A stretch of DNA of 64,000 nucleotides from positions 96,001-160,000 of the IMG/VR virus record IMGVR_UViG_3300025121_000776. One strand, 5' to 3'. The notes below the pieces were generated by a model. It saw nothing but the letters and a program-made list of their open reading frames with translations, was not told where the DNA came from and did not search any database. The stretch comes from a virus. A program made the position numbers and the translations under genes. Numbering within the stretch: the stretch's first letter is position 1; each line of letters begins with the position of its first letter. Shown here in pieces: positions 11,740 to 63,417 of the stretch.

Positions 11740-12648
11740 TTCTTTAATTTTTATTTCTATTTTATCACTGTACTTAATTCTTATTAACCGAATATTGTTT
11801 TTTATACAATACTCGGTTTTTATTTTATCGTTTTTTATTCTCTCATTAAACCTTTTTACACCGCCAAAAAATTCTACAGATTTAAAATGCTGTATACCAT
11901 CATATTCTATACATACATTAAACTCTTTTAAATAAAAGTCAAAAGGTAACAGATTGACTGATTTGCAACAATCAAAAGTTTTTTGTTCGTAGAATTTAAT
12001 ATCAAGTTCATTTAATAACTTTCTTATTATTATTTCACCTTTTGAACTGCTGCATTTCTTACATCCCTTGCCATGTAAATGATTATCTGGAGTTTGCTCG
12101 AACATCCCATGTTTTGGACATGTTATTTTTACTTTTTTATTATTGTGTTCATACATACACAAGTCGTAGTTAAAATAATTGTCATGTATCAAGCTTGCTC
12201 TTTGTATAAAATTTTCATTTGTTAAAGTAAGATTTTTTTTTGTATTTTCTATTTGGCATTTTTTACACCCCTTTCCATGTAAATGATTATCTGGGGACTG
12301 TTCAAATTCTCCGTGTTTTGGACATACAATTTTCAATTTATTATGTGCTCTAATATATTTAGATGGTAAGTAATTATATTTATTATTATGAATTATATTT
12401 GCCTGTATTATAAAGTCTTCTGTGTTTTTTCTTAGCGAAAACCCCTTTTTCTCATCTGAGCATTTTTTACATCCAACTCCACTATAATGAGAATATGCAA
12501 GTTGCTCAAAAATTCCATGCTTTGGGCAGATTATAATTACTTTATTATCCGCTGTTTTATAATCTACTAAAGAATAATTATATTTTTCTCCATGTTTTTC
12601 TTTTGATTTTTGAATAAATATTTCTGTGTTAAATTTTGTAGTTTTCAT
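11719..12648 (-). CDS. Putative homing endonuclease: three Zn-binding CPKHG...GCKKC repeats + C-terminal PD-(D/E)xK/Vsr-like domain
   Basis: Repeated IICPKHGxFEQxxxxHxxGxGCKKC; LPFDFYL...CIEYDGIQH. Confidence 0.8.
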   Translation of the reverse strand: MKTTKFNTEIFIQKSKEKHGEKYNYSLVDYKTADNKVIIICPKHGIFEQLAYSHYSGVGCKKCSDEKKGFSLRKNTEDFIIQANIIHNNKYNYLPSKYIRAHNKLKIVCPKHGEFEQSPDNHLHGKGCKKCQIENTKKNLTLTNENFIQRASLIHDNYFNYDLCMYEHNNKKVKITCPKHGMFEQTPDNHLHGKGCKKCSSSKGEIIIRKLLNELDIKFYEQKTFDCCKSVNLLPFDFYLKEFNVCIEYDGIQHFKSVEFFGGVKRFNERIKNDKIKTEYCIKNNIRLIRIKYSDKIEIKIKELFPKLA

Positions 12649-26718: not shown

Positions 26719-27858
26719 ATGCAAAAACCACCAATTAAACTAAGAGAAATTATCTGGGAAATAACTGGACAATGTTTTAATAATTGTTCATATTGTGGCT
26801 CAAAAGATGTGTCTAAAAAAGCCCTTACACACGAACAAATCATTGACATTGCTCAAGCTATTGCTGATTTTCCCCCAAAAGAAATTAACATAAGTGGAGG
26901 AGACCCATTAACTCTTCCAGCTGACCTTCATATTGAAATTTTAAGGATTTTAAAACAGTCAGAAATAGTCTGCAAAATTATTGTTAATCCAAAATCCATT
27001 AAAAACCCATTATCTGCAGCTTTTGAAATTGTTAAAATGTATGATTGGGCTGGAATTTCTATTAATACCCAAAAAGAATTACAAATCTTTGAAGATATCG
27101 CAGAAACTAAAGAATATGAAAATTACACCGTCATAACAAATTTTAACATTCAAAATCTTTATCAATTTGAAGAAATTGAAGCGTTTGTTAAAAAATATGA
27201 TAAAATGTGGACAATTCAATTTACAGTTTATCAAGACAAAGATAATCCACTTGCTTTATACCATCCAGATAATCAAATTGCTTTTGAATTATTACAACAA
27301 AAGGTTAATACAAGTTCAGCAAAAATAGTTCTATCAGACAATATAAGAAATGATATGCCTTGCGGTGCTGGATTTAGCTCTGTAGGCATCACATATGATG
27401 GTTATGTTATTCCATGTTTAAGTATGAGAAGTTGGAGGGATATTCAAAATTTATGTGAAAAAGAAATATATCAAAATATTTTAAAAACTCCTTTTGAGGA
27501 AATTTGGCAAACATCTTTTATTAATGAAAGATTTTGTAAATTTGAATGTTGCAAAGACATATGTCTCAATAAAACTCTCGAAATAAAAAGTTTTGAAAGA
27601 AAAGTATTTGAGATAACTCCAAAGTCTGAAGAAGAAAAAAAAGATTGGGAAAAAAACATTAATGAATTTTTAAAAAAAGTTAAAAAGGAAAATCCTCCAT
27701 TTGATGCAGGGCAAGTTGTTATGTATGGGGTTATTTCTCCAAGAAATTTTCCAGGTGGTGGCGGAGTTGTTATGTATGGGGTCATTTCTCCAAGAAACTA
27801 CCCTCCCGATGACGACAATGGCGGCGGAATTGTTTTAATGTATGGTGTATTTAGGTAA
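26719..27858 (+). CDS. Radical SAM/SPASM enzyme, splicease (PlpX-like) candidate, with a C-terminal tail bearing three MYG motifs
   Basis: WEITGQCFNNCSYCGS (CxxxCxxC), SGGDP, CGAG...DGYVIPC; tail VVMYGVI x2 and LMYGVF. Confidence 0.8.
   Translation: MQKPPIKLREIIWEITGQCFNNCSYCGSKDVSKKALTHEQIIDIAQAIADFPPKEINISGGDPLTLPADLHIEILRILKQSEIVCKIIVNPKSIKNPLSAAFEIVKMYDWAGISINTQKELQIFEDIAETKEYENYTVITNFNIQNLYQFEEIEAFVKKYDKMWTIQFTVYQDKDNPLALYHPDNQIAFELLQQKVNTSSAKIVLSDNIRNDMPCGAGFSSVGITYDGYVIPCLSMRSWRDIQNLCEKEIYQNILKTPFEEIWQTSFINERFCKFECCKDICLNKTLEIKSFERKVFEITPKSEEEKKDWEKNINEFLKKVKKENPPFDAGQVVMYGVISPRNFPGGGGVVMYGVISPRNYPPDDDNGGGIVLMYGVFR
27715..27797 (+). repeat. Coding direct repeat with 51-nt period encoding VVMYGVISPRN
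   Basis: gttgttatgtatggggt(t/c)atttctccaagaaa at 27715 and 27766; a third degenerate copy at ~27830-27852. Confidence 0.9.
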
Positions 27859-27888
27859 TCTCTTTTCTTAATTGTTATATTTGTTTCT

Positions 27889-27916
27889 AAAAAATCCTCC
27901 AGTTGGAGGATTTTTT
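27889..27916. terminator. Intrinsic terminator
   Basis: AAAAAATCCTCC-agtt-GGAGGATTTTTT. Confidence 0.8.
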
Positions 27917-28628
27917 CTCTATTTATTGTATATGCATATACTGCTATGGAAAATAAAATAGATAGAAAAACATGTGAAAGTTACTTGCAAAACATTAGAA
28001 ATGGAAATAATTTCTATAACAAAGAAACAATAGATGATATGATTAAGTGTTACATTGAAACCGAGGAATATGAGAAATGTAATGAACTAATAAAGATAAA
28101 AGAAAAATAGCTATGGAATATAAAAAAACTATTCGAAAATATATAAAAGAAGCTATTGACGATTTACTGCCAGGTGAACTGACCCACTCACAACTTTATT
28201 GATGAATGGGCTTCTTTGACGTTTCTCAGACTCGTCTTATGACCGATGCCTCACCGCCTTTTTGTTTATCCTGCGAAGAATGTCCCTTATCCTCCACAGC
28301 AATGCTTTTTTGTTTTTTAGATTTTATAGCAAACAACAATTCGTTTGCCAACCACAATATCTCAAAGAACTTTAAATTAAATATATTAAAATTTTATAAA
28401 AATATAAACACTTTTGTGAAACTATTTTAAAATAATTTCGTGTATTTGTAAAAGTAATGGCAACTTATCCAAGCCACACTTTGTGATGACTTGGTTTTTT
28501 TTGCTGAAAATTTTATAAATGGAGAAATTCCACAGAAAATAAAAGATTTATTAAATTTGTCTTAGAGCTATAACATTTTTTAGTTTTTTTCGTATATGTT
28601 AAAAACATGTACAATTAAATCAAAAAAA

Positions 28629-43676: not shown

Positions 43677-43790
43677 AATAAAGTTTTTATGGTTTATAAA
43701 TGTATAAAGAATAAAAAGAATAAAAGGGGAAATTTTAGGTTTACCCCTTTTTTTAAAAAGTTTCTTTATATTCGCATAACCAATAAAAAA

Positions 43791-44357
43791 ATGTATATGC
43801 AAAATTCAGATTTATTCAACTTGATTAACAAATTCAACTTTAGTGGCGTTTCTTTTGTATCTTTAAAGAATTATCGTTCTGATAAAAGTGATAACACCGA
43901 AGTTGCCGATATTCTTATTAACGTAGGTATTTCTTACGAAAAATTAAAAGCTGATGACCTTGAAGTTTTACAAGCTACAAAAAGAAGTATTGGCTCATTT
44001 GTTACTGAAAATTTTGGAATAGCAATACTTGAACAAGCTATTGATGAAAAAATACAGTCAATTTTAAAACCAAACGAAAATCGTAGCAATGGGCAAAAAG
44101 ACGCTTTTGTTATTCTTAACAATGGAATGAAATATTGCCCAAACACAGACAGTTTAATTATTAATGGTTCAGTTGTAAGAAAAACTGTAATTGTAAAAGG
44201 CGAATTTAAAGAAGTAAAAAGTAAACCTTTGACTTTAGCAAAAAAACACCTTGACAAAGCACTTGACCTTAAACTTGCAAAATTAAGATATTACAAACTA
44301 AGCAACTTAGGTGCAATAAAAGTAAGCGGGGACACAATCGAAATAACAAAAAGATAA
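43791..44357 (+). CDS. Hypothetical early protein
   Basis: Start moved to the ATG after the promoter; followed by the hairpin AAAAGGGACTGAAAAGTTCCCTTTTT. Confidence 0.7.
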   Translation: MYMQNSDLFNLINKFNFSGVSFVSLKNYRSDKSDNTEVADILINVGISYEKLKADDLEVLQATKRSIGSFVTENFGIAILEQAIDEKIQSILKPNENRSNGQKDAFVILNNGMKYCPNTDSLIINGSVVRKTVIVKGEFKEVKSKPLTLAKKHLDKALDLKLAKLRYYKLSNLGAIKVSGDTIEITKR

Positions 44358-44719
44358 TAAAATAAAAAAGAAAAAGGGACTGAAAAGTTCCCTTTTTTGT
44401 TTATATATTGCTTTATAATAAACGTTCCTATAATAATAAAAGGTTTCCCTATCTTAATTTTTAAATGCTTTAAAACGCTTTAAAACGAGTTTCCCCTTTT
44501 CTCTCCCTTTTTCTTTATAACAACATTAGAAGTTAAACAATAAACAATAAACAAATGAAGAGTATGAAGAAATTATAAAGAAATTTATTTAAAAATAAAT
44601 TTCTCCCCCACTCAAAAGGTGGGGGCTAACTGAATTTATAAACTTTCCCTATGACACAAGATTCCCCCTTTTTCTCAATCTTTTCTTTATATGTTTATAA
44701 CCAATAAAAACATAAAACA

Positions 44720-46486
44720 ATGAATTATTTAAAAATTGTAATTAACGAAACGGCTTGTAACAGTCCAAAAGTATCAGACGATACTCATGTTTTTAATCAA
44801 ATAGTTGAAAAGAAAAAAACCATTGAAGAAGTTGAGGAATTTCTAAAAGACCGTTACGGCAAAGTAATAAGCAAAAAACACAGAGAAAAAAGAGGAGTTT
44901 TTGTTGATGATAAAAACGGACAAGCAAAAAGAGTGGGATTTCTTTTTTCTTTTTGGAACAAAGATTGGTCGCATAATTCAAAAAGTTGGTTTCAAACTGA
45001 TTGGATTGAAATAATGAAAGTTGAAGAACAAGTAGTATTAATATAAAAAGATAAGGGGATTTTCCCCTTTTTTTTATTTTGTTTCTTTATATGTTTATAA
45101 CTAAAATTAAAAGTCATGAAAAAAGTAACAAAAACTTTAAAAGAAAGAGGCGACATAAAACCCGCTACAACTTTAAAAAACGTCTTCAAGAAAGAAGCAA
45201 TTGTAAGTGCTAATGACGCATTTGAATTGGGATTAGCTTTACAAAGCTTATTAGACCACGAAACTGAGTTTTCAAACACAGGAGTTTCTGTAAGTAAAAT
45301 AACAGAAGCAATTGATTTTGTTAAAAGTAATATTCAGCAAGATATTTTTGCATAGTTTCCCCTTTTTTTTCTTTAATTTCTTTATATTATTATGATAATA
45401 ACAATTTGGTTTACATTATTTAAACTTTTGAAAGAAAACAAAAGGCTTTTAAAAGAAGACAAAAAGATTGACAGTATTGCTGTTGAATTGATTAAAAAAC
45501 ACAAAGAAGTAGAAACTGTTTAAAAGAAACAATTATGCAGACGAAAATTAGAGGCAGTACAATTTTAAGTGCTTAAAGTAAAAAAGCAAAAGAAATTTTA
45601 CAAAACAAATTTAAAAAATCTAATTATGCCGAAAAATAAAGGTTCGCCAAGATAACAAAATATCTTTATATGTTTATAACCAATAAAGTCAAATACAAAA
45701 TACAATTTAGACTTGAAAACCCCTCTCACAAAGGGGTTTTGCATTTCCCCTTTTCTTTGTAAATTTCTTTATATGTTTATAACCAATAAAACAAATCAAA
45801 ATGGCAAAAGACAAATTATCAAAAGGACAAAGAAATTTTGTAAACAAATTTATTAATTCTGATGGCAAACTTTCAGAAGAAAAAATGGTAAAAAGGAACA
45901 ATCGTTTTTCTGGCGAAGAAGCCGAATTAAATGAAGTTGCTGCAGAATGTTTTGACTTTGTAATGAAAGTTGAAGACGGTTTAAACAGAAGAAGTGAAGC
46001 TATTTTAAAAGCTATCCACCCCGACCTTAAACTTTCAAACGCAGTGCAAAAGTTTGATATGGCTCGTATGACTGTTTTAGCCTTTGATTCTGAAGCTTAC
46101 ATGACTTTATTAGATTAAAAGAAAGGGGAGTTTCCCCTTTTCTCTCCCTTTTTCTTTATATGTTTATATAACCAATAAAACCAAATCAAATGCCAAATCA
46201 AGTAGCTCAAATAATCAGACAACAACTTTATGCAGGTGGACGTATTAAAGTTTTCACTTGGGGTGCTAATGCTTGGAGGGCAGGAGAAAATTTTTTACAT
46301 TTTAGAGTTACAGGGAAGTTATTTCGTGGGGTTGTTAGAATAACTTTAAACTCAATGGATTTATACGATATAAAACTAATGAAAGTAAGCGGCGAAGTTG
46401 TAAAAGAAATAAATGGAATTTACAACGACCAACTTACTGATGTAATTGATAACGCAATTGAAAGAGTTCCCGAATATAAATTTTAA
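44720..46486 (+). CDS. Cassette ORFs 44720-45046, 45116-45355, 45801-46118, 46190-46486 (hypothetical)
   Basis: Each begins 20-40 nt after a cassette promoter. Confidence 0.7.
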
Positions 46487-46799
46487 AAACTGGGGGTTTC
46501 CCTTTTTTCTACAAATTTCTTTATATGTTTATAACCAAAAATTAAAAACCAATGATGATAATTTTATTCAGAGAAAGCAGAAGAGTATTAACTCTTAAAG
46601 AGTACAATGAAAGTCGCACAGTGTTAGGAGTTTTAAGCGGTAAAGAATACAGACGACAAAGGCGTAAAGATAAAAGAAAATAGTTTTTTCAATTGCATGT
46701 TTTCATTTTTTGATGTTAAAATTGGTTAAAGGGGAAAATGGACATTCCCCTTTTTCTTTTTTATTTCTTTATATGTTTATAACCAACAAACCAAAGATT

Positions 46800-46979
46800 A
46801 TGGCAAAGAAGAAAAAAAACAAAAAAGAAGTCTCCCTTGATGATTATATAAAAGCTAATCGTAGGGGTTCACGTGAAGCTGAATTAGAATTCGCAAATGG
46901 TTTCAGAGCCGTACACAAAACTCATAAAAGCAAAAAAACTTATGCAAGAAAAGGCAAACACAAAGAGGTTTTTGCATAG
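46800..46979 (+). CDS. Small basic protein with an ArfA/BrfA-like C-terminal motif
   Basis: 59 aa, ...RAVHKTHKSKKTYARKGKHKEVFA; start moved to ATG 46800. Confidence 0.55.
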   Translation: MAKKKKNKKEVSLDDYIKANRRGSREAELEFANGFRAVHKTHKSKKTYARKGKHKEVFA

Positions 46980-47037
46980 AGGAAGTCTCCCCCTTTTCTC
47001 AGAATATTTCTTTATATGTTTATAAACCAATAAAATT

Positions 47038-50000
47038 ATGGAAAAATCATCCAAAAAAAGCGAAAACAAATGCACTAATACAACATTAGTTTCTGGACTT
47101 GTTACGGTTTTAAAAACACCCATAACAGAAAGGTATTGTAAAGTTGGCGACATAGCAACATTAGATATGAAAAATAAACAAATTAGATGTGGCGGTGCTT
47201 GGTTTAATTTTGATGAACGTTGGACTGTTCAATCTTGCAACTACAAATTGTTATTAGATACTTTTAAACAATCCCCTTTTTTCTTTTAAAGTTTCTTTAT
47301 ATAATAAAAAATATTATGGCAGGACATTTTCCACTTAGTAAAATTGATGAACCTCGAATATTTAGATTGGTCGATAAAATCAAAAATTTAATTATTTCAA
47401 ATGGTTCAGTTATTAAAGACTTTGAAAAATTCAAAATTACAGTTGGAAAAAATTCTGTTTATGAAATAATGAAACTCTCAAAAGATTATGTTGAAAATCC
47501 TATAAAAGAATTTGCATTTAATGTTGGAAAATTTTCTCTTGAAAGTATTACTGATGAACATCCTTCGCTTACAAAAAATATTAGTCTTGAATGTCATTTT
47601 CTAATAACTGAAAAAACAGTTATTAAAAAAATTATTATAAAAGATATATTTTGGGTAGCTTAATTCCCCTTTTCTCTATAAGTTTCTTTATATGTTTGTA
47701 ACCAACAAATTAAAAATTATGAAAATTATATTACAATATACTTGCGTTGCTTATTATACCAATAATACTAAAAAGACTTTAATTTGTAAAGCTGACTTTG
47801 AAAATTTCAACTTATCATTAAACAACTTTAATGAAAAAGTTATTGATTGGAACAGACAAGGACAAAACATGAAACAAATACAAAGCAAAGTAACTCCAAT
47901 TTTGGGCTATGATTATTTCACAACTCCCGAACAACATATTGAAAATATGCGAATAACTAAAACTAAACAATATCCAATTTCAACAGCACCTAAAATTACT
48001 TGCCCCAACTGTAATTTTAAATTTTAACAATATTCCCCCTTTTCTCCCCAGATTTCTTTATAAAAACAAAACAAAAAAGATTATGACAATAGCAATTTAC
48101 ATAGTGATTTCAATAATATCTTTTTGTTTAGGATATTATTTCTGTAAAAAAAGATACAATGTAAAAGGACTTATTAGACTTGCAGATTGTCAAGCTGATT
48201 TTATTGCAGGGGATATAACAAGAGAAAGAGCTTTAGAAATAATAAATGAAATTGAAAAATAACATATTGACAGGAAAGATTTAGTTTATTGGTTTGAAGA
48301 AGGGGGCTTGATTCCCCCTTTTTCATTTTGTTTTCTTTATATTCATAATTCAATTAAATAAATAAAAGCGATGGATGAAATTATAAAAGAAGCACTTATT
48401 AATTATTATAAAAATACTGATAATATTGATAAGTATGGGCAATTAAACATTTTCTATATGCAAGCTTTTTATTTTATTAAGGATGAACTTTTGAGAAATA
48501 AAGTAATTGAGTTCATAAAAGAAGGAAAAAGTAAATTAGTAAAATTTCAAACTTATGGTGGTAGATTTGGAGTTTATGAAGCAATTGCTATAATTGACAA
48601 CAAACTTAATAGCGAGCTATCAATTGCTCTACGTTCAAATGAAACTTACAAAGAAAAAATGAGACATTGATAAACTTCCCCTTTTCTTTACAAATTTCTT
48701 TATATGTTTATAAATCAAAAAAGCTTAAAATGAAAACAATTATAATAAACTACAAAGATTTTGTTGAAAGCATGAATGACAACAAAAGAGTTGAGAAAGT
48801 TTTAACAGCTTTGCAGACTGCAAAAGTAGAGGAACAGAACCCAAACATGATTATTGTAAACTACTCAGACGAGGGCTACGCTTTGTTTAATGTTATAAAG
48901 ATAGAAAACGAAATGAGATATGTACAGTCAAATGGAACGGCTGCATAAACTCTCCCCCTTTTCTTTGGGGTTTTCTTTATATGTTTATAACCAATAAAAA
49001 ACTAAAGTCATGAATGAAGTATCAAATGAAAAATTTAAAATAGAATTTTATAGTTCAGAAGGTGACAGTCGTACATGGGATAACCTTACAAAAATGGTTT
49101 GTTGTCATGGCAAATACCGTTTAGGGGATAAGCATGATTATAATAGTAATGACTTTGATTCATGGGAAGATTTTAAAAAAGCTATTATTAAAAACGAAAA
49201 GGCTGTAATTATTAAACCGCTTTACATATACGACCATGGCGGTATAACTATTGCTACTTCTCCATTTTCTTGCAGATGGGATAGTGGACAAGTTGGGTTT
49301 GTTTTTGTGACAAGAGAAACAATGTTAAAAGAATATGGTATTAAAAGAATAACCAAAAAGTATATTGAACAAGCAACCAAAGTATTAGGTGGTGAAGTTG
49401 AAACATACAAACAAGAAGTTGAAGGTGACGTTTGGGGTTTTAATTCTGAAAATCTTGAAACTGGCGAAACTGATAGTTGCGGAGGATTTTATGGAAGTGA
49501 TTTTTGGGCAAATGGAATGACAGACCATATAAATGATGAAATAATTGAAGGTTTAAGAAGTGAATTAGAAGCTGAATTTGGAAAAGAGAAAAAATAAAGG
49601 AGGGGGAATTCCCCCTTTTCTCAGAATATTTCTTTATATAAACATAACCAATAAAAAACCAAAGTTATGAATATAGTAATAGTTGATAATTTTAAAACCG
49701 ATGTAATGTTCAGAAAAGATATTACAAAAGATTTCAAAGGTACAATATTTGCAGTATTTCCTCACGAAGTTGATAATTACAGAGGGGATATTATGACCTA
49801 TCAACACGTAGGACAGCATAGTTCTGGGGATTATCAAGTTTGTTTACAACAATCAAAACCAGCAACCGTAGAAGAAAGTGCAGACTTAAAACGTGAAATG
49901 GAAGGCTTAGGATATGATTTAAACATAGTTCGCAGACAGAATCGAGATAAATACTTAAAAGAGTACAAAAGGGTTAATAAGGCTTAAAAAGAGCTGAGGG

Positions 50001-51817
50001 GAATTTTCCCCTTTTTTTGATTTATTTCTTTATATAATTATAATCAACAAATAAAAATTATGGCTTATTATATTACAATTTACAAACAAAAAAAATGTGG
50101 TGATAAGTTTAAAGTTAAAGCAAACGTAAAATTTGTGAAACAAGTTGTTCGTAACCCCTTTAGTGAATACGGAAGGATTGCAACTGAAAACTTTATGAAA
50201 CTATTTTCAGCAAGTCTTAATGAACCTGTGAAACTTTCAAAAAAGACGATTGAAAAAGCAATTGAAAATTACTCAAAACAAGCAAGTGATTTTAGGTGCT
50301 ATAATTCAAAGTTTTTACCAATACTAAAAACAAGCAGTATTTTCAATTTTCTTAATCGAATAAAATACGATTATTACATTGTGGGAAATTAATTTCCCCT
50401 TTTTTTGATTTATTTCTTTATATAATAAAATAAGAAGCCATGATAAAAGTAACAGCTACAGGAACACAAGAGTTTGAGATGATTAATGCAAAACTTGATA
50501 AACTTCCTTTTTTAATTCGTGAACAGATTGAGAGTGCTGAGAAAGCCCCTACGCATGACGGAATTATTTGTAAGCTTAAAAGTTCTAAAATTAATGACCA
50601 AAACATTTGTCTACCAAAATCAGGCGTCCAACAAATTCTTGAAAGTGATAGAATAATAACAATCATAATTGATAATTATGCCTTTATTTTTAAAATTCAA
50701 AGATTTGAACAAAATATTTCTTTTATGTTTAATCAATAATTCTCCCCCTTTTTCTTTTTGGTTTCTTTATATGTTTATAAAACCAATAACCATGAAAAAT
50801 AATATCAAAAAAAACAGAATACTTTTTATTGAGGGTGCAAAGAAAATAATTGCAAATTTGGGTGCAAAAATTATAAGTTTACCTACTTTTGCATGTGAAA
50901 ATACAAAGTACTTATTAAAGACAAAAACAAATGTTTTAAACATTATTCTATATGAGGAAAATCATCAAGAATTTCTTTATTCAGTATTTTGCAGATTTGA
51001 AACCCCTTGCAAAGAAGCAAACAATCAACATTCGGGAAAGCATAATTTTCATCTTGCAAGTAAACTCCCTATACCCGAAATATTAAAAGAATTAGAAAAT
51101 CACTTAAAAAATGCAATTGAAGTTTAAGGGGAACTCTCCCCCTTTTTCTTTTTATTTTCTTTATATAAATAAAAATAAACGAATATGAGAAACATTTTTA
51201 ATACCATAGTAACAACCAAAAGACACAGAGAAATTGGTTATTGTGAATCTTCAGATTTTGGCAAAATTGAACTTATTGCTTTAGAATCAAGTGAAAAGGA
51301 ATTAATTGTTTCCTTTAATGATTATAAAGATAAAAAAGAGTTTATTGCTTTTGAAGGTCATGCTTACGCAAAAGTAAATAAAAGCTCTTATTTTGGTGGA
51401 ATGTCAAGAGAAGAAGAAGGAAGTTGGGCGAAAAAGCAAGGCAAGTTTTCAGAAAGAACTGCAATCAAATTACTTTTAGAATTAAGGAAACGATTTGAAA
51501 ACACGTTTTCAAATGTTAGTTCTGCAAAATATATTCTAATTGATAGAACTCTTTATGTTCAATATTGTAAACTCAAAGACCTTGCAATTACAGTTTGCGG
51601 AAACATGTTGTTTGCTCATTGGATAAGCATTAATATTGAATGTCATGAAGGTAAAGAAAATATAAAGCTTAATAAAAGCAATTTTGAAAAGATTGTTAAA
51701 GCACAATATGAAAGATGGAAACAGGGCAACCCCAAAACCAAAAGTATTGATGGTCATACTCACAGTTGTTTCTCAAAACCAACTAATGTAAAATGGGGTG
51801 AAAAGTTTGTTGCTTAA
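47038..51817 (+). CDS. Cassette ORFs 47038-47289, 47316-47663, 47719-48027, 48083-48262, 48371-48670, 48730-48948, 49010-49597, 49667-49987, 50060-50392, 50440-50739, 50792-51127, 51185-51817 (hypothetical)
   Basis: One ORF per promoter element; several track starts corrected to the ATG downstream of the element. Confidence 0.7.
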
Positions 51818-51876
51818 TTTTCCCCTTTTCTCCCTACTTTTCTTTATATCTTCATAACCAATAAATTTAAAAAGCC

Positions 51877-52213
51877 ATGAAAACAATAAACAAAATTATT
51901 ACCAAAGTTGATACAAGTCGAGGTGCACCAATAATTCCGTCATGCGTAGGGGCTTTCTCAGCACTCTCAATCTGTTCACGAATTTTTATCAAGTTTTGCA
52001 TTAATCATCTCAAACTCTTGTGTTCCTGTGGGCAGGAGTAATGTTGGAACTGAGAAAGACGCAAAAGGCAAAAGAATTTTTGATTGTGCTGTACCAATGA
52101 GTTCAGACGGTGCATACGATTCTAAAGGAGCATATTTTGGAATTGGAAGACAATTAAGGGTTAAATATACAAAAGATTTAACTTTTATAAAGTTTTATAG
52201 AAGGGGAGAATAA
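51877..52213 (+). pseudogene. Cassette gene split by a 97-bp antisense insertion
   Basis: Removing 51933-52029 restores ...SRGAP-ATG-GRSNVG... as one 79-aa ORF; as written it is frameshifted. Confidence 0.8.
51933..52029 (-). repeat. Inverted duplication of 50458-50565 lacking 11 internal nt (50503-50513)
   Basis: Exact reverse-complement match in two blocks (52 and 45 nt), verified base by base at the junctions. Confidence 0.92.
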
Positions 52214-52271
52214 TTCCCCTTTTTTTAAAACTTTTTCTTTATATCTTTATAACCAATAAAAATCTAAAACC

Positions 52272-55200
52272 ATGAGTACAGAATGGAAATTTGTAATAAT
52301 ATTAGGGTTCATAATAACCATTTTGTGTATAGTTTTCGGAGGTTTTCAAGGTATTATTGACGCTGTAAAAGATATAATTGCTTTTGTAATGTTTTGGGGG
52401 TTTATTGCTCTTATTATTGCAGGTCTTTACTTTTTACTAAAAAGATTTGAAAAAAACAAAAAAGAATAATTAATGTATAATTGCTATAACGAAGCTGTTA
52501 TTTATCTTAGAGATAAATTAGGCACAAAAGAAGTTCATCATGGTTTTGTTACAAAAGAAGTAAAACAACATAGAATTGATAAAACTTATAAAGATGAAAA
52601 GATTAAGCCAAATTCAGATGAAGCCATAATTGACTGTTTATTAAAACAATATTATTTTGGGATTGACGCAAAGAAAGAATTGTTTTATAAATTACAAAGC
52701 TTGGGTGTAAAAACTTTAATAAATTAAAAATAACATTATGGAAATGTATAACTTAGAACGTGAAAGGTTTGAAACTCCCGAAGAAAGAAAAATAAGACTT
52801 GGACTTGTAAAGCACAAACAAACTTGTGAAAAAAACCGAAGAAAAAGAAAAGCAAAGAGAAAAAAATAATTCCCCCTTTTTTTCTCAAATTTCTTTATAT
52901 GTTTATATAACCAATAAAAACAAAAAAAATGGAACACAAAATAAAAAAACCAAAAGGAACTTTTTATTCTGATTATGTAATTGAAAACGGAAAGTGTTAT
53001 GCAATTTTTGAAACTGTTGATAACAGGGTGCATAAAACACTTGTTTGCAATACTAAAAAGAAAAATTCAGATTGGAGGACTTTTAAAATAAAAGAAACAA
53101 AAAAATTGTTAAAAATAAATCTTTTTGACAGAGAAAAACTTAAGTTAGAATCAAATCAGTATATTCCTTATGAAGGAAAACGGTTGCCAAGTGGAATGCC
53201 AGCGTGTGCAACATATTACTACTTTGTAAATTCAGAGGGTAAAACAGTTGATAAAGTAACTTTAAAACCTTACAAAGGCAAACAAATGAACCGTTATGCT
53301 ATGAAGTCGAAAACAGAAGCAAAAGCATATTTAGAAGTTATAAACAAGGGGGTTTAACTCTCCCCCTTTTTTATTTTTGTTTCTTTATATAATTGTAACC
53401 AAAAAATAAAATTATGGCAAATACAAAAAAATGGGATAAACATTTACAACCTATCATTGATGATTTTAATGAGGGTGGCAATGAAGCTTTAGATGGCGAT
53501 GATGTTGATTTCTTGGTTAAAATCATTAAACTTAAACTTAATTTTATGCAAGGCAATTTAACACAAAAGGAATACGACACAAAACTTGCTCGTTTAAAAT
53601 GGAAATACAGTTAAATAAGGGGGTTTCCCCTTTTTTAAAACTTTTTCTTTATATGTTTATAACCAATAAAAACAAATGTCTTATGAATTTCAATAACAAA
53701 CATTTTAAAACTCGCACTCTTAAAGTAGAAGTTGGGGACAATACAAGAACTTACACAATTGCAGACGAAAGTTTGTTGCAAGAAATTAATAGTGTAACCA
53801 CTTCAGAAGCTCAATTAAAAGGAACAAATATTGATGAACAAATTTATTTTTATGTTGATAAAGGACAATTAGAGCTTCCAGCAAAAGAAATTTGCGAAAA
53901 GCATTTAGACGTTCCAATGAAATTTGTTGAAGAAATATTTTAAACTATTATAAAAACCATGAAAAAATTCAGTATAAGACTAAAAGAAATGTATGCAGAA
54001 GCAGAGGCAAGACTTTCTACTCTTATTGATGAAAATGGAACTGAAAGTAAACATTCCAGCAATAAAAGTCTTAAAATCAAAAAAGATGATTTAAAATATA
54101 ATTTATCGGGAGGTCGTTATTTAACTGAAATTAAAAAAGTAAGTAAATTCACTGACGAAATTGAATTAGTTGATAATGGCGGATATACTTATAATTGTTC
54201 AGTGATGGATTCTGACAATTTCTTCGAGGTAGTTGATTATTTATTTGAAACTTATTAACTCACCCCTTTTTTTTTAAAAGTTCTTTATATAACCAGGTAT
54301 TGGAGACAAAATCAGAACCAAACGGAGTTTTCCTGGTAAAGTTTAATTATAGACTGGATGTAAAAAAAGGTATAATAAAAATATTTAAAGATTCGGTTTT
54401 TTCATGGTTTATATTGGTTAATAAAGGGGAGCTGGTTACTCCCCTTCTTCTTTCTCCCCCTTTTCTCCCCAGATTTCTTTATATGTTTATAAACAAAAAA
54501 TCATGCAACCATTACAAACAAGTCAAGAAATTGTAAGCACTTTTAGTCAATTGTCAAAAAGAGAAACCAAAGATGCTTTTATATTTCATTTAATTGGTAG
54601 TCCTGTAACATTCAGATATGTTAAAAAAGATTTTACTTTACAAACTATTACTTTTGGGCAAATAGTATGTAAACAAACTGTTTGCAAACCTTTAAGCTTT
54701 CAAGACTTTTTGCTTGTGGCACATGAAACATTTAATATAGTTATAAAAAGAAATTTTGGCGATAACTAACAATGAGCAAAATAAAAGATAAATATAATAA
54801 AAACAAAAACGCAAAGGTCGGGGAAACTTGCACCTGCCCAAGTTGCAACACTTCTTTTGTAAAAGAAAGTTATCAGCAAGTTTTCTGTAAAAGCAAAGGG
54901 GGTACAATTTGCAAAGATAAATACTGGAATACCGTAACACCAAGTAAAAGAAATAATACAACAAGAATAAGCCCAGCCAATAAAGCTTTTAAAGAAAGTG
55001 ATAGGGGTAAAGAGATTATAAACCAAAAATTGTGGGGTATGAGTGCCCCAAATATAGTTGGTGGTTCGGGGGTAATTTCGGGTATAACAAGTGAAGGCTA
55101 TAGAATAATGGACGGCACAGCTTACGATGAATTTGATGACGCAATTTATGATGTTTAATTCTCCCCCTTTTTTTTATTCAGTTTCTTTATACAATAAAAA

Positions 55201-55943
55201 AACAAAACAACATGAAAAAGTTTTTTAAAAATTTACTTGCCAATTTACTTGATTGGCAGTTTATCCCCAAAGTAGGGGACAAAGTAAAAGTTGCGGTTGG
55301 ATTTTGCTCTTATGAAAATGAAGGGATTGTATCAAGTGTGTATAAAGATAAACAAGGGGGCTATTGTTGGATTGACCAATTTAGCCCTAAAGGGAAATAT
55401 ATAAGAAGTTTTACTGCTTCATTTAGCTATTGTGTGTTTAAGTTTCTTTAATTCCCCCTTTTTTCTCAAACTTTCTTTATATATTCATAATCAAAAAAAC
55501 AATTTAATATGATAATAACAATTGATACACATTATTGTTCAAGAGAAGAACTACAAGAACTGAAAGATTACTTAAGTAATAACTCTTGGGACTTCAAAAC
55601 AAATGAAGTAAAAGAAGAAAAAGAAGTACTTCATGTATTGGGCGAAAATTCAATTAATGGAATTAAAATAAAAGAAAGAATTTTTCAAGAAGAATTATTT
55701 GAGTACAAAATAATTGACAGAAAAGAGTTTATTGATGAATTGATTCGTTGGATTGGAGAAGCAAAAAGTACTGATAAAGTTCTAATGAAGCAAGATTTGG
55801 AATTGCTTATGAATACAACTGATGACTTTATGTTTAGCTCTATTTCAACTAATGAGTATGTAGGAAAAGAAGATTCCAATTTTGATGAATTATGTGAGGA
55901 ATTATTAAAGTTAAATAAAGAGACAAAAAAGGGGAAAAAATAA
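52272..55943 (+). CDS. Cassette ORFs 52272-52469 (2 TM), 52473-52727, 52738-52869 (basic), 52929-53357, 53414-53614, 53683-53943, 53959-54258, 54503-54769, 54772-55158 (Cys-rich), 55212-55451, 55509-55943
   Basis: Co-oriented ORFs following promoter elements. Confidence 0.68.
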
Positions 55944-56021
55944 TTCCCCCCCTTTTTCTCAGCTTTTTCTTTATATGTTTATAACCAGAATAAGTTTTTT
56001 TCGTATAAAAAAATAAATGCT

Positions 56022-56930
56022 ATGACAAAAAAAAATCCTTTAGATGATTTTTATAAACTCAATTCATTAATTTCTCCAAACGGAATAAATGGATTTATGG
56101 GCGGTTTATTTGCTCATATGGAAAAAAGCGAAAGACGGCAAAGAAATGCTTTTGCAGGTATTACGTCCAATGAAGAAGGACTTTTTGGGGTTGAAGGTAA
56201 AATTCCTTTTGAATATGTTAATATTGAATTTAAAAACAAAATATACGAATGCCTTTTAAATTGCAATAAAACTCACGAATTTGATGTTTATGACAAGGAT
56301 TGTAATTTACTTTTCCAAGCTGATAAATTTGATAACTTAAAAGAGGGAATGTTCGCTGTAAGAATTGGCGAAAGAAAAAATAATGATTATGATTATGCTA
56401 TTTACAACGGCTCAAAAAGAGTTTCTGACTTTAATTTTAGAGTTGGGGGTTTAAGCTCTGGATTTGAAGGGCAATTTTGCGAAATATTATACAGACATCC
56501 AACACAAGAAAAATATTTATCTACACACGTTGTAATAAACAAAGAGGGCGAAATTATACTTAAAGCTGAGGGAAGTTATTCAGATTATATTTCTATTCAC
56601 AAAAACATTGCTTTTAATGGCAAAAAGGTTTTTAACCTTTTGACAAGAGAATTAATTTGTGAACAAACATACAGTTCAGATTCAACCATTAAAATAAAAG
56701 ATGAAGTTTTTGTAAAAGTAGGCGATAACGCTGTTTACAAAATAAATAAATATTCTGGCGAATTTGAAATTTTCGGTACTCTCCCCGAACCTAAGAAAGA
56801 AGTTGTTTATACTCCACCAGTTCCAAAAGAAAAAGTGGTTGTTCTCCCCAAACAACAAAGAAATGAAATTTGTCGTTGTGGGAGCAATAAGAAAGTTAAA
56901 CATTGTAATTGCAAAAATAATGGAGGATAA
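56022..56930 (+). CDS. Protein with C-terminal SEC-C metal-binding motif
   Basis: RNEICRCGSNKKVKHC, compare SecA RNDPCPCGSGKKYKxC. Confidence 0.7.
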   Translation: MTKKNPLDDFYKLNSLISPNGINGFMGGLFAHMEKSERRQRNAFAGITSNEEGLFGVEGKIPFEYVNIEFKNKIYECLLNCNKTHEFDVYDKDCNLLFQADKFDNLKEGMFAVRIGERKNNDYDYAIYNGSKRVSDFNFRVGGLSSGFEGQFCEILYRHPTQEKYLSTHVVINKEGEIILKAEGSYSDYISIHKNIAFNGKKVFNLLTRELICEQTYSSDSTIKIKDEVFVKVGDNAVYKINKYSGEFEIFGTLPEPKKEVVYTPPVPKEKVVVLPKQQRNEICRCGSNKKVKHCNCKNNGG

Positions 56931-57863
56931 CAATATACAAAACAACGAAGTCTCCCCCGAAAAGAAAAAAGGAATGACCATTGGGATTATTGGAGATGGT
57001 GGACTTATTGGAGCTAAGCACGCTTTAGCTATGGCTCAAAAAGATATTGGCACTCTTGTTAAAACTGAAATTCCCGAAATAGTATCTAAACTTGCTTTAA
57101 AAATGGCAGACAAAGGTGTCATTATCATTGTTGGAGCAACCGATACTGAACCTTCTTATAAAATTGAAAATGGCGTTGCAAGTGTTTTTGATGGCAAAGT
57201 TGTTACAGATTCAGAGGGCAAAAGAATTGTTTTAGATGATTCCAAATATGATAAACAATTGCCTTTAAGTCTTTTTGAAAGAGACTCTCCCTCATTAGTT
57301 TCAAAAGCTGAGCTTTTAAATGAAATGATTCCCTCGATGGAAATGTTTGATGGCACACCAAATAAATTAAGTTTAATAAGAAATCTTAAGCTCTCCCCCG
57401 AACAAATAGATTACTTTATGTTTGCACCACCTCAAAGGTTGGAGGGGGAAAAACATGATGATTATAAAAGACGACAAATGTTAAATAAATTATTAATTAA
57501 ATATAGGGGTTTATATTAATTCCCCCCTTTTTAAAAAAGTTTCTTTATATAAACATGAAAGAATTTTTAAGAAAATGGATTGAAGCTCAACTTGTAACTT
57601 TTAAAGGATGTGAACATCTTTTTTTAAAAACTATAGAGAAAGCTAATTACGGAAAATTTGCAAGTAAAGACTTTACGATAAAAACACGAATTACTTTGCA
57701 AAACAAAGACCATGATTTAATTAGGTTTATTGTTCCGTGTTTTTATACACTTACTGAAATTAAAAATGCTTTAAAAAATGGATACGAACTGTATTGGGAT
57801 TTTAAAGGCAGAAATTCAGTAAGCAATTCTGAAATAACATTAAAGAAAATAAAAACTAAGTAA
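56920..57863 (+). CDS. Hypothetical ORFs 56920-57519 and 57555-57863
   Basis: Start of the first moved to ATG 56920 (MEDNN). Confidence 0.65.
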
Positions 57864-57906
57864 TTCCCCCTTTTTAAATATAATTTCTTTATATAAACAA
57901 AAAGCC

Positions 57907-58191
57907 ATGAAAGCAATAGTAAAAGTCAAAAAAGGAAGTGTATATAGCAATTTCAATGGATTAACTTTTGAAGTTGAAGAAATTAATTCCACTTTTGTTC
58001 GTTTAGATATTAATGGAATTTCTACTGATTTTTTATATACCGAAGTAATTATGTAGATTATTCAAAAAGAATATCAAAAAGCTTTTGATAATTATAATTT
58101 CAATGGAGATAGTACTGTTATTAGACTACAAACTTATGCTACAAAAAACACTATTTTTTTAGACAAACCTGAATATAATTGTCCTGCATAA
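57907..58191 (+). pseudogene. Cassette ORF interrupted by an in-frame TAG (58054-58056)
   Basis: 49 sense codons, TAG, then 44 more sense codons in the same frame to TAA, filling the cassette exactly. Confidence 0.65.
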
Positions 58192-58244
58192 TTCCCCCTT
58201 TTTCTCATAAATTTCTTTATATCAATGAATCAAAAATTACAATT

Positions 58245-60951
58245 ATGCAAATTATAACAAGAGATGAAGACGGAGTAATTATTATGACATGTTCAACTGA
58301 AATGGCAAAAGTCCTTTTTTTATCCAGAGTAAGAAAATCAGTAACCCAATTCGTTAATAACAACAAAGAGGTTAAAGCAGTTTTTTCAAAAACTTTTACC
58401 TTTAACGACTTAGCAACTTTTTCAAAAGATTCCCGCTTGATAAATATTTTAGCAATGAATTATATTTTTGGATTTACAGCTGTAAGTGTAAAAGAAAACA
58501 TAGGTGGATTTGATAGCCAAACAAATTTGCTTAATAGCTGATTTCCCCTTTTCTCAAAAAGTTTCTTTATATTAATATAACCAAAAACAAAGGCAATGTC
58601 AAAAGTATTCCCAAATTCGATAATTAAATATGATGAATTACCCACAATAAACGGGGAATTAATTGAATCTATTTTCGCTTATAAATGGAAAGAAAACTAT
58701 TATAAAGCAGGAGATTGTCCAACAGGAGAAAAACCAGACTTTTTTCTTTGTCAATCATATTTTAGATGTCACACCCCCCATTATAGCAGAAGAGTAAGAA
58801 CATTACCCGAAGTTTTTCAAAAACTTCTGTTAAACGCAGATGGAACTTATAAAGGTCGTTATTTATCATATAGGACAAGATGTTCGGGAAATGGGGGATT
58901 TGTTGATGAATCTATATCTTTAAATGGCGATGGTAAACATGTCGCTTATTACAGAGGAAGTAATGATGAAATGGGAATACTGGAAAAATCAGAAATAGCA
59001 CAATTAATGATTTTTACTCTTAACAAAAAGTACAAATGCGAAGAAGTCGGAGATTATGAATTTACTCCAAATCCCTGTACGCATTTAAGAAATGAAGGTG
59101 GTTTGTTTTATCCTGATGTAGCTTGTAGTGGGTGGCGTTGGATGCATGGAATGCCCTATGTTTCCAATAATTATCCAAAAAGAGAAAACATAAGAGTTTT
59201 TAATGAATACTTAAATGCTCACATGTACTTGCAAAAAGTTAATTCTGTTGAAGTGGGGGACGAAGATTTATTAACTGTTGACTTCCCTTTTCAAGACGAT
59301 AAAAGAGGAGATTTATTTTGTAATCCATCACGTTGGAATGATACAAGAAATAACGAATTAATTCGTTATAAAATATTACACAAAAAACGTGAAAAAAATG
59401 TTTTTGAAGTTGGTGCTTGCTATAATGGTGAAGTGCAATTTAAAAAAGAAATGTATGGAGATTCATTTTATAAAATAGTAAGCATTATTTTCATAGACTA
59501 AACTCTCCCCCTTTTTTCTTTCAGTTTCTTTATATGTTTATAAATCAATAAAATTTTTCAATTATGGGCGGATTCACTCAAATAAAGCTAAAAGATGTTT
59601 CTATTCAGAACATCGAAAAACAAAATGCAATTTTGGATATTCACAAAGTACCAAAAAAATATCGTTTTAAATCTTTAGAAACAGTACAAATAATCGAGTA
59701 TGAATATTTTAAAAGAGGGCTTGGTACTTTTCATGAAAGTCAATTCCCCAAAGACAAAATAAAATCTTTAGCAGATTTTAAAAAGTATTGGAATCCAAAA
59801 GCAATAGGAGAAATATTTTGTGCTTATTCTGGAACATTGCAATTTGATTGTTATTTTGGCAGAACTTCAAAAAGTGCTATGCGAAAAATTGGCAAATACC
59901 TTGCTGAAAATATTAATGAAATAAGAGAAGTTGACGGTTCATTTTCAACCTTTTTAGAAAGAGGAACAACAAAAGCAGAAGTAAAAATAATTACAGAAAG
60001 CGGTTTGAAAATTTAACAAGGGGGATTTTCCCCCTTTTTTATTTCCTTTTCTTTATATCAATATAACCAAAAACTTATAATATGAGCTATACTCTCTTTT
60101 ATGACAAACAATTCATCAAAGTAAAAAAAGATGAAAAAACAGTATTTGTACCAATGATTTATGGCGGTTCAAACAATTGCTATGAAGTTGGTAAAGGTGG
60201 CAGAAGTGGCAGACGTGAAAGAGATTGGTTTGTTTTAAAGTTTATTCTTAATGGTAAAATTGCAGGTACACTCGAAGAAATGTTAGAAAAAGCAGAGGCT
60301 GAAAAAGTAGAACTAATTGAAAGAAATAAAGATGATGACAACAAATATTCAGATGACCGCTTTGGTTGGTTTTCTTCTCTTTCTTTGGGTGGTGGGTGCA
60401 AAGTCACTTTTGGACAATATAAAGGTGTTTTTATAACAGGGTGCAAAAAAGCTCTTACAGTAGAAGAATTAAAAGAGTTTGGCGTAGGTGTTTATATTTC
60501 AACATATCTTTACGAAGATAGCAAAAAAGAAGCTCTTAAGCAAGCAGGAAAAGAAATGAAATATGTTGAAATTAACTCTTCAGATGAACTTTTAACAAAA
60601 TTTGAAGAAACAGAAAAATACTATGAGGGCACAGGGGTTTCTGTTTACTTAAAAATTGATGCCTTTGAACATCAAATGAAAAGAATACGTAAAGCAAAAT
60701 TCCCCACAACAAAAAAAGTAAAACAACTTGTTGAAGTTGATAAATACTTTGTAATTAGAGTTGAACATTGTGGATATTTTCATAGTGCAATGAGAAATGG
60801 TTTTAGACACACTCCCTATTCAGATTCGGCAAAAGGTTTTATTACAGAAAAAGAAGCTGAGAAGTATTTAAAGAAATTTAAACAAAGAAATTCAAGAATA
60901 GCAAGTATTGAACTTGTGAATGAAAAAAATCGAATATTAACTTTGGTTTAA
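58245..60951 (+). CDS. Cassette ORFs 58245-58541, 58596-59501, 59564-60016, 60082-60951 (hypothetical)
   Basis: One ORF per promoter element. Confidence 0.7.
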
Positions 60952-61018
60952 AGGGGACAACTCTCCCCCTTTTTTAATTCCTTTTCTTTATAGTTACATA
61001 ACCAAAAAAACAAATAAA

Positions 61019-61786
61019 ATGAATTTACTAAAATTAGGCACAGGAAACGCAAAGTTAAAAAATGATATTGCTATAGTGGACCTCCCAGCTGGTTTTACGT
61101 GTCCTTATTCTAAAGACTGCGGGGATAAGGTGGACCCAGTGACTGGCAAATTAATTAAAAATCCAAAAGCAAAATTTCGTTGTTTCGCTGCAACCAGTGA
61201 GCTAATTTCCGCAGCTGCAAGACGTAAAAGGTGGCACAATTTTAATCTAATTAAAGAATGCAAAAGCTCAAAAGAAATTGCAGATTTAATTATAAATTCA
61301 CTTAATGCAAACAAATTCACAAAAGCAGCTCCAAAGGTTCGCATTCATTCAAGCGGTGACTTTTTTAATCAGAAATATTTTAATGCTTGGTTGCTTGTTG
61401 CAAATGCAATGCCCGAAAAAACGTTTTATGCTTATACAAAGAGTTTAAAATTTTGGGTTGCACAATTGAATAATATACCCGCAAACTTTCATCTTATCGC
61501 TTCTAAAGGGGGTAAAAATGATAGTTTAATCGAAAAACACAATCTTAAAAACGTAGAAATAGTTTTTTCACTTAATGAAGCAATTGAAAAGGGCTTAGAA
61601 ATTGACCACGATGATAGTCATTGCTATAATAAAGATGTAAAAAAGTTTGCCCTACTTTTACATGGGACCCAGCCAAAAAACAGCTTAGCCTCCGTAGCCA
61701 TTCAAAAATTAAGAAAAGAAGGAATTATGGGATACCAGAGGGGCGTTGTCGGTGCTGGTAGAATTGAAAAAACAAAAGCAGCATAA
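61019..61786 (+). CDS. GP88-family protein (radical-SAM-like Cys motif)
   Basis: GNAKL...LPAGFTCPYSKDC...CFA, VRIHSSGDFF, FYAYTKS. Confidence 0.75.
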   Translation: MNLLKLGTGNAKLKNDIAIVDLPAGFTCPYSKDCGDKVDPVTGKLIKNPKAKFRCFAATSELISAAARRKRWHNFNLIKECKSSKEIADLIINSLNANKFTKAAPKVRIHSSGDFFNQKYFNAWLLVANAMPEKTFYAYTKSLKFWVAQLNNIPANFHLIASKGGKNDSLIEKHNLKNVEIVFSLNEAIEKGLEIDHDDSHCYNKDVKKFALLLHGTQPKNSLASVAIQKLRKEGIMGYQRGVVGAGRIEKTKAA

Positions 61787-61860
61787 AAATGAGTTGGGGG
61801 GATGAGGAAACTCTCCCCCTTTTTAAATAAAGTTTCTTTATATAAACAAACAATAAAATT

Positions 61861-63417
61861 ATGAATAATAGACTTAAAATCGGTGACGTTGTAAATTGGA
61901 AAGGCTCTTGGGGTACTGAACCCGAAGCAAAGGCTAAAGTTGAAAACATTGAAATCTGTGCTCAAAACAGCAAAGATGGAAAAGAAGTAAAATCAGTTGC
62001 ATGGGATACAATTACCAACGATAAAAGACGAGTAATTGTCACTCTTGATAATGGTCATTGGGCTTATGGAAATCAAATTTCTCCTATTAAATAAAAACAA
62101 TTATGAAAAAATCATTCAGAAAATTCAAAGAAGGAACAGAAGTGAAAACTACAGTTTTTATGTCAACCGAAGATATTGGAGGAGATGAAAATATTGAAGT
62201 TAGTACAACTGGAATTGTATTTGCTGAACCAAGTGACAGCGAAGAATTGGTTGGAGTAAATATTAACGGCTCACTTAATTATCTTCCCCAATTTGTTTTA
62301 GAGGTTTCCTCAGAAGAAAAATAAACAGAAAGAGAAACTCTCCCCCTTTTTTATAAAAGTTTCTTTATATAATTATAAAACTTCTTAAACAAAAATTCGT
62401 ATAACATAGTATTAATCTTTAAATTTAAAAACTTATGAAAAAATTAATTCTTTATATTTGTTTAATGATGATTTCGTTAAATATACTTTCACAAACTGAT
62501 TCAATAATTTTTGCATCTATAACAGGAAATTATTCAATTAAGTGTAAGATAATTAGAGTGGGAAGTGATAGAATATATTATAAATATTATAATAATTCTG
62601 ATACTTTAAAATATGGTATTGTAAAAAGTGGAACGGCATTTTTAAACACTATAACTGAATATAAAAGTGATAATATTTGGCATATAGGAGCATTTATTGA
62701 AAAAGAACAAAATACAATAATTGTAAACAATATTTTATCAGATAATGCAAAATATAATATTAAAACCGATACACTTCAAAGTATAATGCTAATAACATCT
62801 AAACTTGAAAATAAGTTGCAATGTATTCAATATAATCTTTTAAAATGCAATCAAACATATACCACAGGTGTTGAATGTATAATAGTTGGAATATTATTTA
62901 ACGTAATTGGAGGCATAGCTATGGTTTATGATGAATTGACGCCAGCTTATACATTAATGGGGACGGGTGGTATTTTAACAGTTATTGGGGGAATTACAAT
63001 AATAAGTAGTCACAAATATATTGGAGAAGCAGGAAGTTGTAAGTAAATGGTAATCTATCCCCCAGTCAAAACTAAGAGGACTGCAGAATGAAGTTATTAT
63101 TCAAATAGCTTGTTTTTTAGAGGGTAGTTGGGAAGGATAACTCTCCCCCTTTTCTTCTTAAGTTTCTTTATATAATCAAATAATAAATAATCAATATCAT
63201 GAAAAAATTAACATTCCAATTACAAGACTTAGACGGCGAAAGTATGGGATTACTTCAAACCGAAATGAGTTCCAGCATTATTCAAAAAGAGTGGACAGCC
63301 TACATTAATTCCGAAACCGATGATATGGGAATTGAAGAATTTATTACTCAAATGAAAGCTAAATATCCTAAGTTCATATTTAAACGTTTTTTTATTGACA
63401 AAGAGATTAGTGCATAA
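61861..63417 (+). CDS. Cassette ORFs 61861-62094, 62103-62324, 62435-63046 (signal peptide + C-terminal TM helices), 63199-63417
   Basis: Co-oriented ORFs following promoter elements. Confidence 0.65.

Follow-up and report, generated by a model that had tools for sequence, protein, structure and literature searches.

The virus contig analysed here (IMG/VR record IMGVR_UViG_3300025121_000776) has a length of 186,855 bp, a G+C content of ~30% and a CheckV completeness of 57%. The window, i.e. the whole stretch of DNA that was studied, corresponds to bases 96001–160000 of this contig (64,000 nt), and positions given below are those of the window unless stated otherwise. Because contigs of 277 kb and 540 kb encode identical proteins, the source was regarded as a huge phage from groundwater metagenomes. 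No match to 5 kb of the locus was found in the GenBank phage records by blastn.

Between 43.7 and 63.2 kb of the window, ~40 small genes are arranged in a row on the + strand, and the two genes considered in this study (gene A and gene B) are both members of this row. The motif TTTCTTTATAT, for which 67 matches were found compared with 13.4 expected, precedes nearly every small gene of the row. On the + strand of positions 43761–63173, ~40 exact copies of the motif were located, each 27–39 nt 5′ of the ATG of a small gene, and these copies are usually preceded by a GGGG/CCCC hairpin with a T-run. On the 3′ side of most row genes there is likewise a short GGGG/CCCC hairpin with a T-run, and 18 terminator-like sites were counted in 4 kb (1.6 expected). 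No Shine–Dalgarno sequence is visible before the row genes, the A-rich leaders of which often contain AACCAATAA. The motif TTTCTTTATAT looks like a phage-specific early promoter class that would provide one transcription unit per gene.

When positions 49000–54000 were compared with the corresponding region of a related phage (L009), a 111-aa gene (82% identity) and gene B were found to be common to both. The genes between and around these two differ, with genes for proteins of 80 and 99 aa in L009 and of 210 aa in the window. As read from the sequence, the array has a mosaic structure that reflects the exchange of individual putative transcription units. The row resembles integron gene cassettes in that it is a dense series of small, separately equipped genes; unlike cassettes, however, its units are terminator/promoter elements, and the insert described below is a gene fragment that lacks attC-like end sites. 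Outside the early array, diverged repeats of 45–100 nt with 83–90% identity are present at positions 27741–28369 and 77836–77934 of the genome, and the same set includes positions 12508–12611 and 28420–28520 of the window.

The features of the locus are as follows.

50413–50423, + strand: promoter-like motif of gene A, an exact copy of the row motif TTTCTTTATAT.
50440–50739, + strand: gene A, a 99-aa ORFan with an open frame; source of the copy, intact.
50458–50502, + strand: gene A segment 2 (45 nt), copied second; 100% complementary to 51985–52029.
50503–50513, + strand: skipped 11-nt tract CTTCCTTTTTT, found in the source and absent from the copy, with no microhomology across the skip.
50514–50568, + strand: gene A segment 1 (52 nt, 50514–50565) plus 3 nt of microhomology (50566–50568); complementary to 51930–51984.
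51839–51849, + strand: intact promoter-like motif of gene B; exact copy of TTTCTTTATAT, located 38 nt upstream of the ATG.
51877–51932, + strand: 5′ part of gene B, codons 1–18 and the AT of codon 19; reads MKTINKIITKVDTSRGAP; profile positions 1–19.
51933–52029, + strand: inverted templated insertion of 97 nt, antisense to bases 19–126 of gene A minus 11.
52030–52213, + strand: 3′ part of gene B, the G of codon 19, codons 20–79 and the stop codon; profile positions 16–79, with no further lesion.
52203–52225, + strand: intrinsic terminator of gene B, intact; GGGGA/TCCCC hairpin and T-run (−17 kcal/mol, z = −3.6).

The 97 nt at positions 51933–52029 are the reverse complement of 50458–50502 joined to 50514–50565. 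No mismatch was found by a script check, and the same two arms were recovered by a repeat search, so that the exact antisense copy claimed in the initial annotation holds at 97 of 97 nt, as does the omission from it of the 11-nt tract at 50503–50513. The match extends by 3 bases (AAT) beyond the left end of the insert, where 51930–51932 correspond to 50566–50568, in agreement with the microhomology described earlier; AAT is thus common to source and target at the left junction, and five of six bases agree when the neighbouring bases are counted. The internal skip shows 0 nt of microhomology and the right junction 0–1 nt. The insert lies between AT and G of an ATG codon, as had been proposed: the flanks read GCA CCA AT on the left and G GGC AGG on the right, and all 27 aligned members of the gene B family have G-x-P-M/I-G-R at this place. 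There is no target-site duplication (the flanks CCAAT and GGGC are unduplicated), and neither terminal repeats nor an attC-like or other recombination site was found at the insert ends. An IS element or MITE was rejected because terminal repeats and a target duplication are missing, and an intron because the insert is too short. A diversity-generating or other retroelement was also rejected, as the contig contains no reverse transcriptase (PF00078) and the repeats are inverted and free of mismatches.

In a self-BLAST of the 186,855-bp contig, the insert and its source form the largest repeat and the sole one between two coding regions, the other repeats being intergenic elements; a chance match was therefore dismissed. 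The insert sequence has only two copies in the contig. A genome-wide self-BLAST had been recommended as a search for further inserts, and in the 187-kb contig the event proved to be unique.

Gene A lies 1.4 kb upstream of the insert, and its 99-codon frame (300 bases) stays open. Since gene A needs the 11 nt for its reading frame, the long version must be the original and the copy the derived form. No Pfam or PHROG family was assigned to gene A, no relative was found in the viral contigs, and among 5.8 billion proteins it matched only itself. On its 3′ side (50715–50762), only the C-run/T-run half of a terminator is present, with no pairing arm and a fold energy of 0, and over 34 nt its promoter element does not differ from that of its upstream neighbour (50005–50038 and 50393–50426). 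The half-terminator and the 34-nt identity hint at recombination within the array and suggest that gene A is a recent arrival in the row.

Gene B belongs to a conserved, unnamed family of 74–97 aa with the C-terminal sequence LRVxYTKDLxFxxFYR. Its 61-aa part downstream of the insert has 29 relatives (57–103 aa; E-values from 3e-25 to 1e-12) and one more in a viral contig. In an alignment of 27 of these relatives, G16, P18, G20 and R21 do not vary and M19 hardly varies; the insert thus falls within the Met19 codon of a near-invariant G-A-P-M-G-R motif, the most conserved position of the family. The overall family pattern can be written MRTIDKIIT..GAPMGR..FDCAVPM..GAYDKGGAYWG..LRVxYTKDLxYIxFYR (alignment A1, with L003 at 3854–4144 and L009 at 4001–4240), and some members carry a variable insertion of 15–20 aa after GAPMGR. 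The family was encountered only in metagenomic and viral contigs, some of which exceed 450 kb. Neither gene B nor its intact homologs and neighbours showed a credible match to a Pfam or PHROG family, and an AlphaFold2 model of the gene B family (pLDDT 69.5) retrieved nothing from the PDB at E <1 by Foldseek.

The family profile hits the window twice, with positions 1–19 at 51877–51933 and positions 16–79 at 52019–52210. The frameshift reported in the initial annotation is present: the frame starting at ATG 51877 runs through 18 normal codons, enters the insert and reaches a stop after 54 codons. The new GTG start at 52028 was confirmed as well; it consists of the last two insert bases and the G of the old ATG and opens 61 codons. 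All residues of gene B are encoded, yet they lie in two frames split by the 97 nt, and there is no continuous family frame. When the 97 nt are removed, a 79-codon frame is obtained that is colinear with P0004 (79 aa), the closest relative, to which the C-terminal part is 79% identical and with which 15 of the first 18 residues are shared. In L009, the phage in which the neighbouring 111-aa gene is 82% identical, gene B is intact and no gene A homolog is found at the corresponding position. A search with the family profile detected no other or intact paralog of gene B in the contig. By its reading frames, gene B is a fresh pseudogene with one lesion.

The chimeric 54-aa product has no exact match on record, which is uninformative because gene callers skip such frames. 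On the − strand, the insertion has created a 44-codon frame at 51867–52001, which consists of gene A residues 26–42 and antisense gene B; it is probably not expressed, since no promoter motif lies upstream on that strand.

The two frames of gene B could in principle be joined by a programmed translational bypass of the 97 nt, in which ribosomes would take off at CCA (Pro18), land at CCT before GTG GGC AGG and produce a full-length protein with Val19. Pro codons do stand directly in front of the insert and 3 nt short of its end. However, the take-off and landing codons differ, no stop codon follows the take-off site, and the inserted DNA is a fresh copy of gene A sequence without modification. 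In phage T4, gene 60 is read by programmed bypass of a 50-nt gap, and the gap here is twice as long. Such a bypass is barely conceivable in gene B.

The same insert with both junctions was found, exact over the 97 nt and over 40-nt junction windows, in L004 (SRR2177950), L005/L016 (SRR2177952) and L015 (SRR2177986), and likewise in L013 (a 277-kb contig from ERZ27254749) and L014 (ERZ5996431, also in JGI). A further contig, L017 (a Logan contig from SRR2090173), starts inside the insert and contains its last 30 nt and the right junction. L017 was considered as a possible uninserted allele and rejected because of this start point; a break inside the insert is expected of a short-k assembler at a two-copy repeat. 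Similarly, L007, at first taken for a different gene order, is identical DNA with another gene call. An inversion of the segment between the two arms was rejected because the arrangement does not vary among the contigs that span both arms and because flipping would bring no useful fusion. All carrier contigs are 99.9–100% identical to the window, which indicates that the population is near-clonal and that the insert is fixed in it. Several carrier runs belong to one groundwater project, PRJNA292723, so that the samples may not be independent of one another. This project is listed among groundwater data sets (PMC11549363).

The search for an uninserted allele that the initial annotation had called for yielded none, either among the contigs found for this phage or among the 5.8 billion proteins. 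In an exact scan of the JGI metagenome contigs, the uninserted junction gave 0 hits and the internal junction of the insert also gave 0, and a scan of the viral contigs for the left junction likewise gave 0 hits; these are weak negatives. Contig names with k127 or k141 (MEGAHIT) presumably denote k-mers longer than the insert, so that single reads or read-derived k-mers would span it.

These observations bear on the proposal that the structure is a chimera formed during assembly or amplification (MDA) of the DNA. The genome is a metagenome assembly, and the insert has the appearance of an MDA chimera, being inverted, close to its source and joined through a short microhomology; MDA chimeras are reportedly (Lasken and Stockwell in 2007) typical in joining inverted nearby sequences at microhomology. 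Such chimeras are, however, random, rare per molecule and library-specific, whereas the insert is identical in all assemblies, no alternative allele being seen. Three junctions would be needed in one molecule, at least six data sets, assembled separately and with different assemblers, show the identical structure, and an amplification chimera would not displace the true allele in every library. The library or assembly chimera suggested in the initial annotation was accordingly discarded, given that insert and both junctions recur in five other assemblies and the right junction in one more; we regard an artefact as highly improbable.

The insert is best explained, with a probability of about 0.65, as a recent, one-off insertion by polymerase template switching that was neutral and became fixed by drift or hitch-hiking. 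Template switching had been put forward in the initial annotation, and the anatomy fits it: an inverted copy, a microhomology, an internal skip and an intact source. The exact inverted copy and the intact source 1.4 kb away argue that the segment was copied and not moved, and the lack of divergence of the copy together with the lack of a second lesion in gene B argues that the event was recent. Because the insert is on the + strand, the template must have been the + strand of gene A, read from 50565 down to 50458. We infer that, during synthesis of the + strand through gene B, the growing 3′ end would have left its template inside codon 19 and re-annealed through AAT (3 nt; five of six bases match) to the + strand of gene A, 1.4 kb behind. 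The polymerase would then have copied 52 nt backwards, skipped 11 nt and copied 45 more, after which the 3′ end would have returned to the base adjoining its point of departure, leaving gene A unharmed. Gene B would thereby have been frameshifted in its most conserved motif and turned into a pseudogene, and the 97-nt antisense stretch in its transcript would be a by-product. The mutation would then have been fixed in the near-clonal phage population by drift or hitch-hiking; in such a population, fixation without selection is easy.

In a fork travelling rightwards, a + strand 3′ end extended in that direction would belong to the leading strand, and the gene A template would have been exposed as single-stranded DNA on the lagging side, trailing by about one Okazaki length. 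The GC skew of the + strand is positive along most of the contig, which is compatible with this geometry and lends it weak support, since the skew also tracks gene direction. A break-induced version of the copying path may also apply.

The nearest known counterparts are insertions attributed to FoSTeS and MMBIR, reportedly described by Lee et al. in 2007 and Hastings et al. in 2009, respectively, and said to include templated insertions. Several switches in one event, such as the one that produced the 11-nt skip, are typical of FoSTeS/MMBIR. The insert shares with these insertions a short copy from nearby sequence (here inverted) made at a microhomology, more than one switch, an intact source and no target duplication. 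Most descriptions of FoSTeS/MMBIR events come from human, yeast and cancer genomes, whereas the present one is fixed in a population of an uncultured huge phage, links two separately transcribed genes and has clear microhomology at one junction. MMBIR is polymerase template switching at microhomology and yields templated insertions (PMC8421209).

A second counterpart is the strand-switch mutagenesis of phage T4 and Escherichia coli, in which the polymerase changes strand within a fork, copies the complementary strand and makes or perfects an inverted repeat. Strand-switch mutations were first described in phage T4, and quasipalindrome or strand-switch mutagenesis in T4 and E. coli is reportedly the subject of work by Ripley in 1982, de Boer and Ripley in 1984 and Dutra and Lovett in 2006. 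The classic cases cover a few bases up to some tens of bases between imperfect inverted repeats that were already in place; here, in contrast, the switch spans 1.4 kb, 97 nt were copied and there was no pre-existing quasipalindrome.

The clear microhomology at only one of the three junctions counts against a template switch, and a product of this kind would also be expected if free DNA fragments were captured by end joining at a break. Under end joining, free fragments of gene A would have been captured as filler, and the 0–1 nt of homology at two of the three junctions and the composition of the insert from two blocks would be accounted for. However, the blocks keep the order and orientation of the source and are 11 nt apart there, for which one copying run with a skip is simpler, and the source is intact. 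We therefore consider an origin by end joining very unlikely.

The same template-switch mutation may instead have spread because the loss of gene B helps the phage, for example, if a host defence senses the protein or if a CRISPR or restriction system targets the conserved site. Such an adaptive loss would suit the location of the insert at the most conserved position of the family, its fixation in all sampled contigs and the absence of an intact gene B paralog from the contig. In a near-clonal population, however, fixation needs no selection, and the gene B family has neither a Pfam or PHROG match nor a fold match (model pLDDT 69.5). Selection for the antisense RNA might likewise account for the presence of the insert in all contigs sampled. 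A selected loss of gene B is unlikely, and we infer that the template-switch insertion spread without selection.

The intact promoter-like motif and terminator of gene B, together with the same motif before gene A, raise the question of an antisense effect. If the gene B promoter fires, its RNA would include 97 nt that are antisense to codons 7–42 of gene A; a search of the insert for terminator-like sites gave none. The two blocks, of 52 and 45 nt, are perfectly complementary to gene A on either side of an 11-nt bulge, and the predicted pairing gain of the two transcripts is approximately −131 kcal/mol with the insert, compared with approximately −15 kcal/mol without it. The initial annotation had described this RNA as fully complementary to the gene A mRNA; bases 19–126 of the 300-base gene A would indeed pair, interrupted by an 11-base bulge, whereas the rest of the mRNA would not.

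On this basis, the insert could be an evolved trans-antisense silencer, in which RNA from the gene B promoter would pair with gene A mRNA, the double-stranded RNA would be cut and gene A expression would be lowered. The exact same promoter motif on both genes and the intact gene B terminator imply that the two RNAs would coexist, and the predicted gain in interaction energy is in line with such a role. Several points speak against it, however: the case is a single one in the contig, the insert is absent from related phages, which keep gene B intact, and the silencer would cost a conserved gene, so that the earlier proposal of a means to mute a toxic gene was not upheld. Nothing suggests that gene A is toxic, and a point mutation would silence it more cheaply. 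Pairing starts at base 19 (codon 7), outside the window of the first five codons, within which pairing is said to block initiation (reportedly Bouvier et al. in 2008); any effect would thus need cleavage of the RNase III type. As the carriers are 99.9–100% identical and the copy has not diverged from its source, conserved complementarity would not be visible. An evolved silencer is therefore very unlikely.

Antisense RNAs of phages, namely P1/P7 c4, lambda OOP and P22 sar, are dedicated, conserved small RNAs that are mostly encoded opposite or beside their targets and have experimental support. The putative gene B transcript is similar in that it is complementary to another phage mRNA and the pairing could cause cleavage, but its antisense block sits within a disrupted protein gene and lacks conservation, and a regulatory role would be putative. 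The reading that this huge phage now uses the broken early gene as a promoter-driven trans-antisense RNA, which would pair with 97 nt of a newly acquired ORFan and tune it down, is, on the features described, doubtful and of very low probability.

The insert is thus a well-resolved instance of an already known kind of mutation, and gene B is otherwise an ordinary pseudogene. It offers a clean natural case of an inverted insertion in phage DNA, probably made by a long-range template switch, with all junctions resolved, and the event has been caught so early that copy and source remain identical. If it arose by template switching, a mutation class known chiefly from work on human and yeast genomes disrupts genes of huge phages as well. 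An unusual inverted insert in a phage assembled from metagenomes is not necessarily an artefact, and fragmented assemblies can hide inverted templated insertions. The locus also draws attention to a conserved, unnamed family of small proteins of huge phages, the loss of which is tolerated by this phage. Template-switch events may create antisense transcripts by accident and so supply raw material for the evolution of regulation; were the silencing of gene A true, template switching in promoter-equipped gene arrays would be a quick route to silencers of new or harmful genes.
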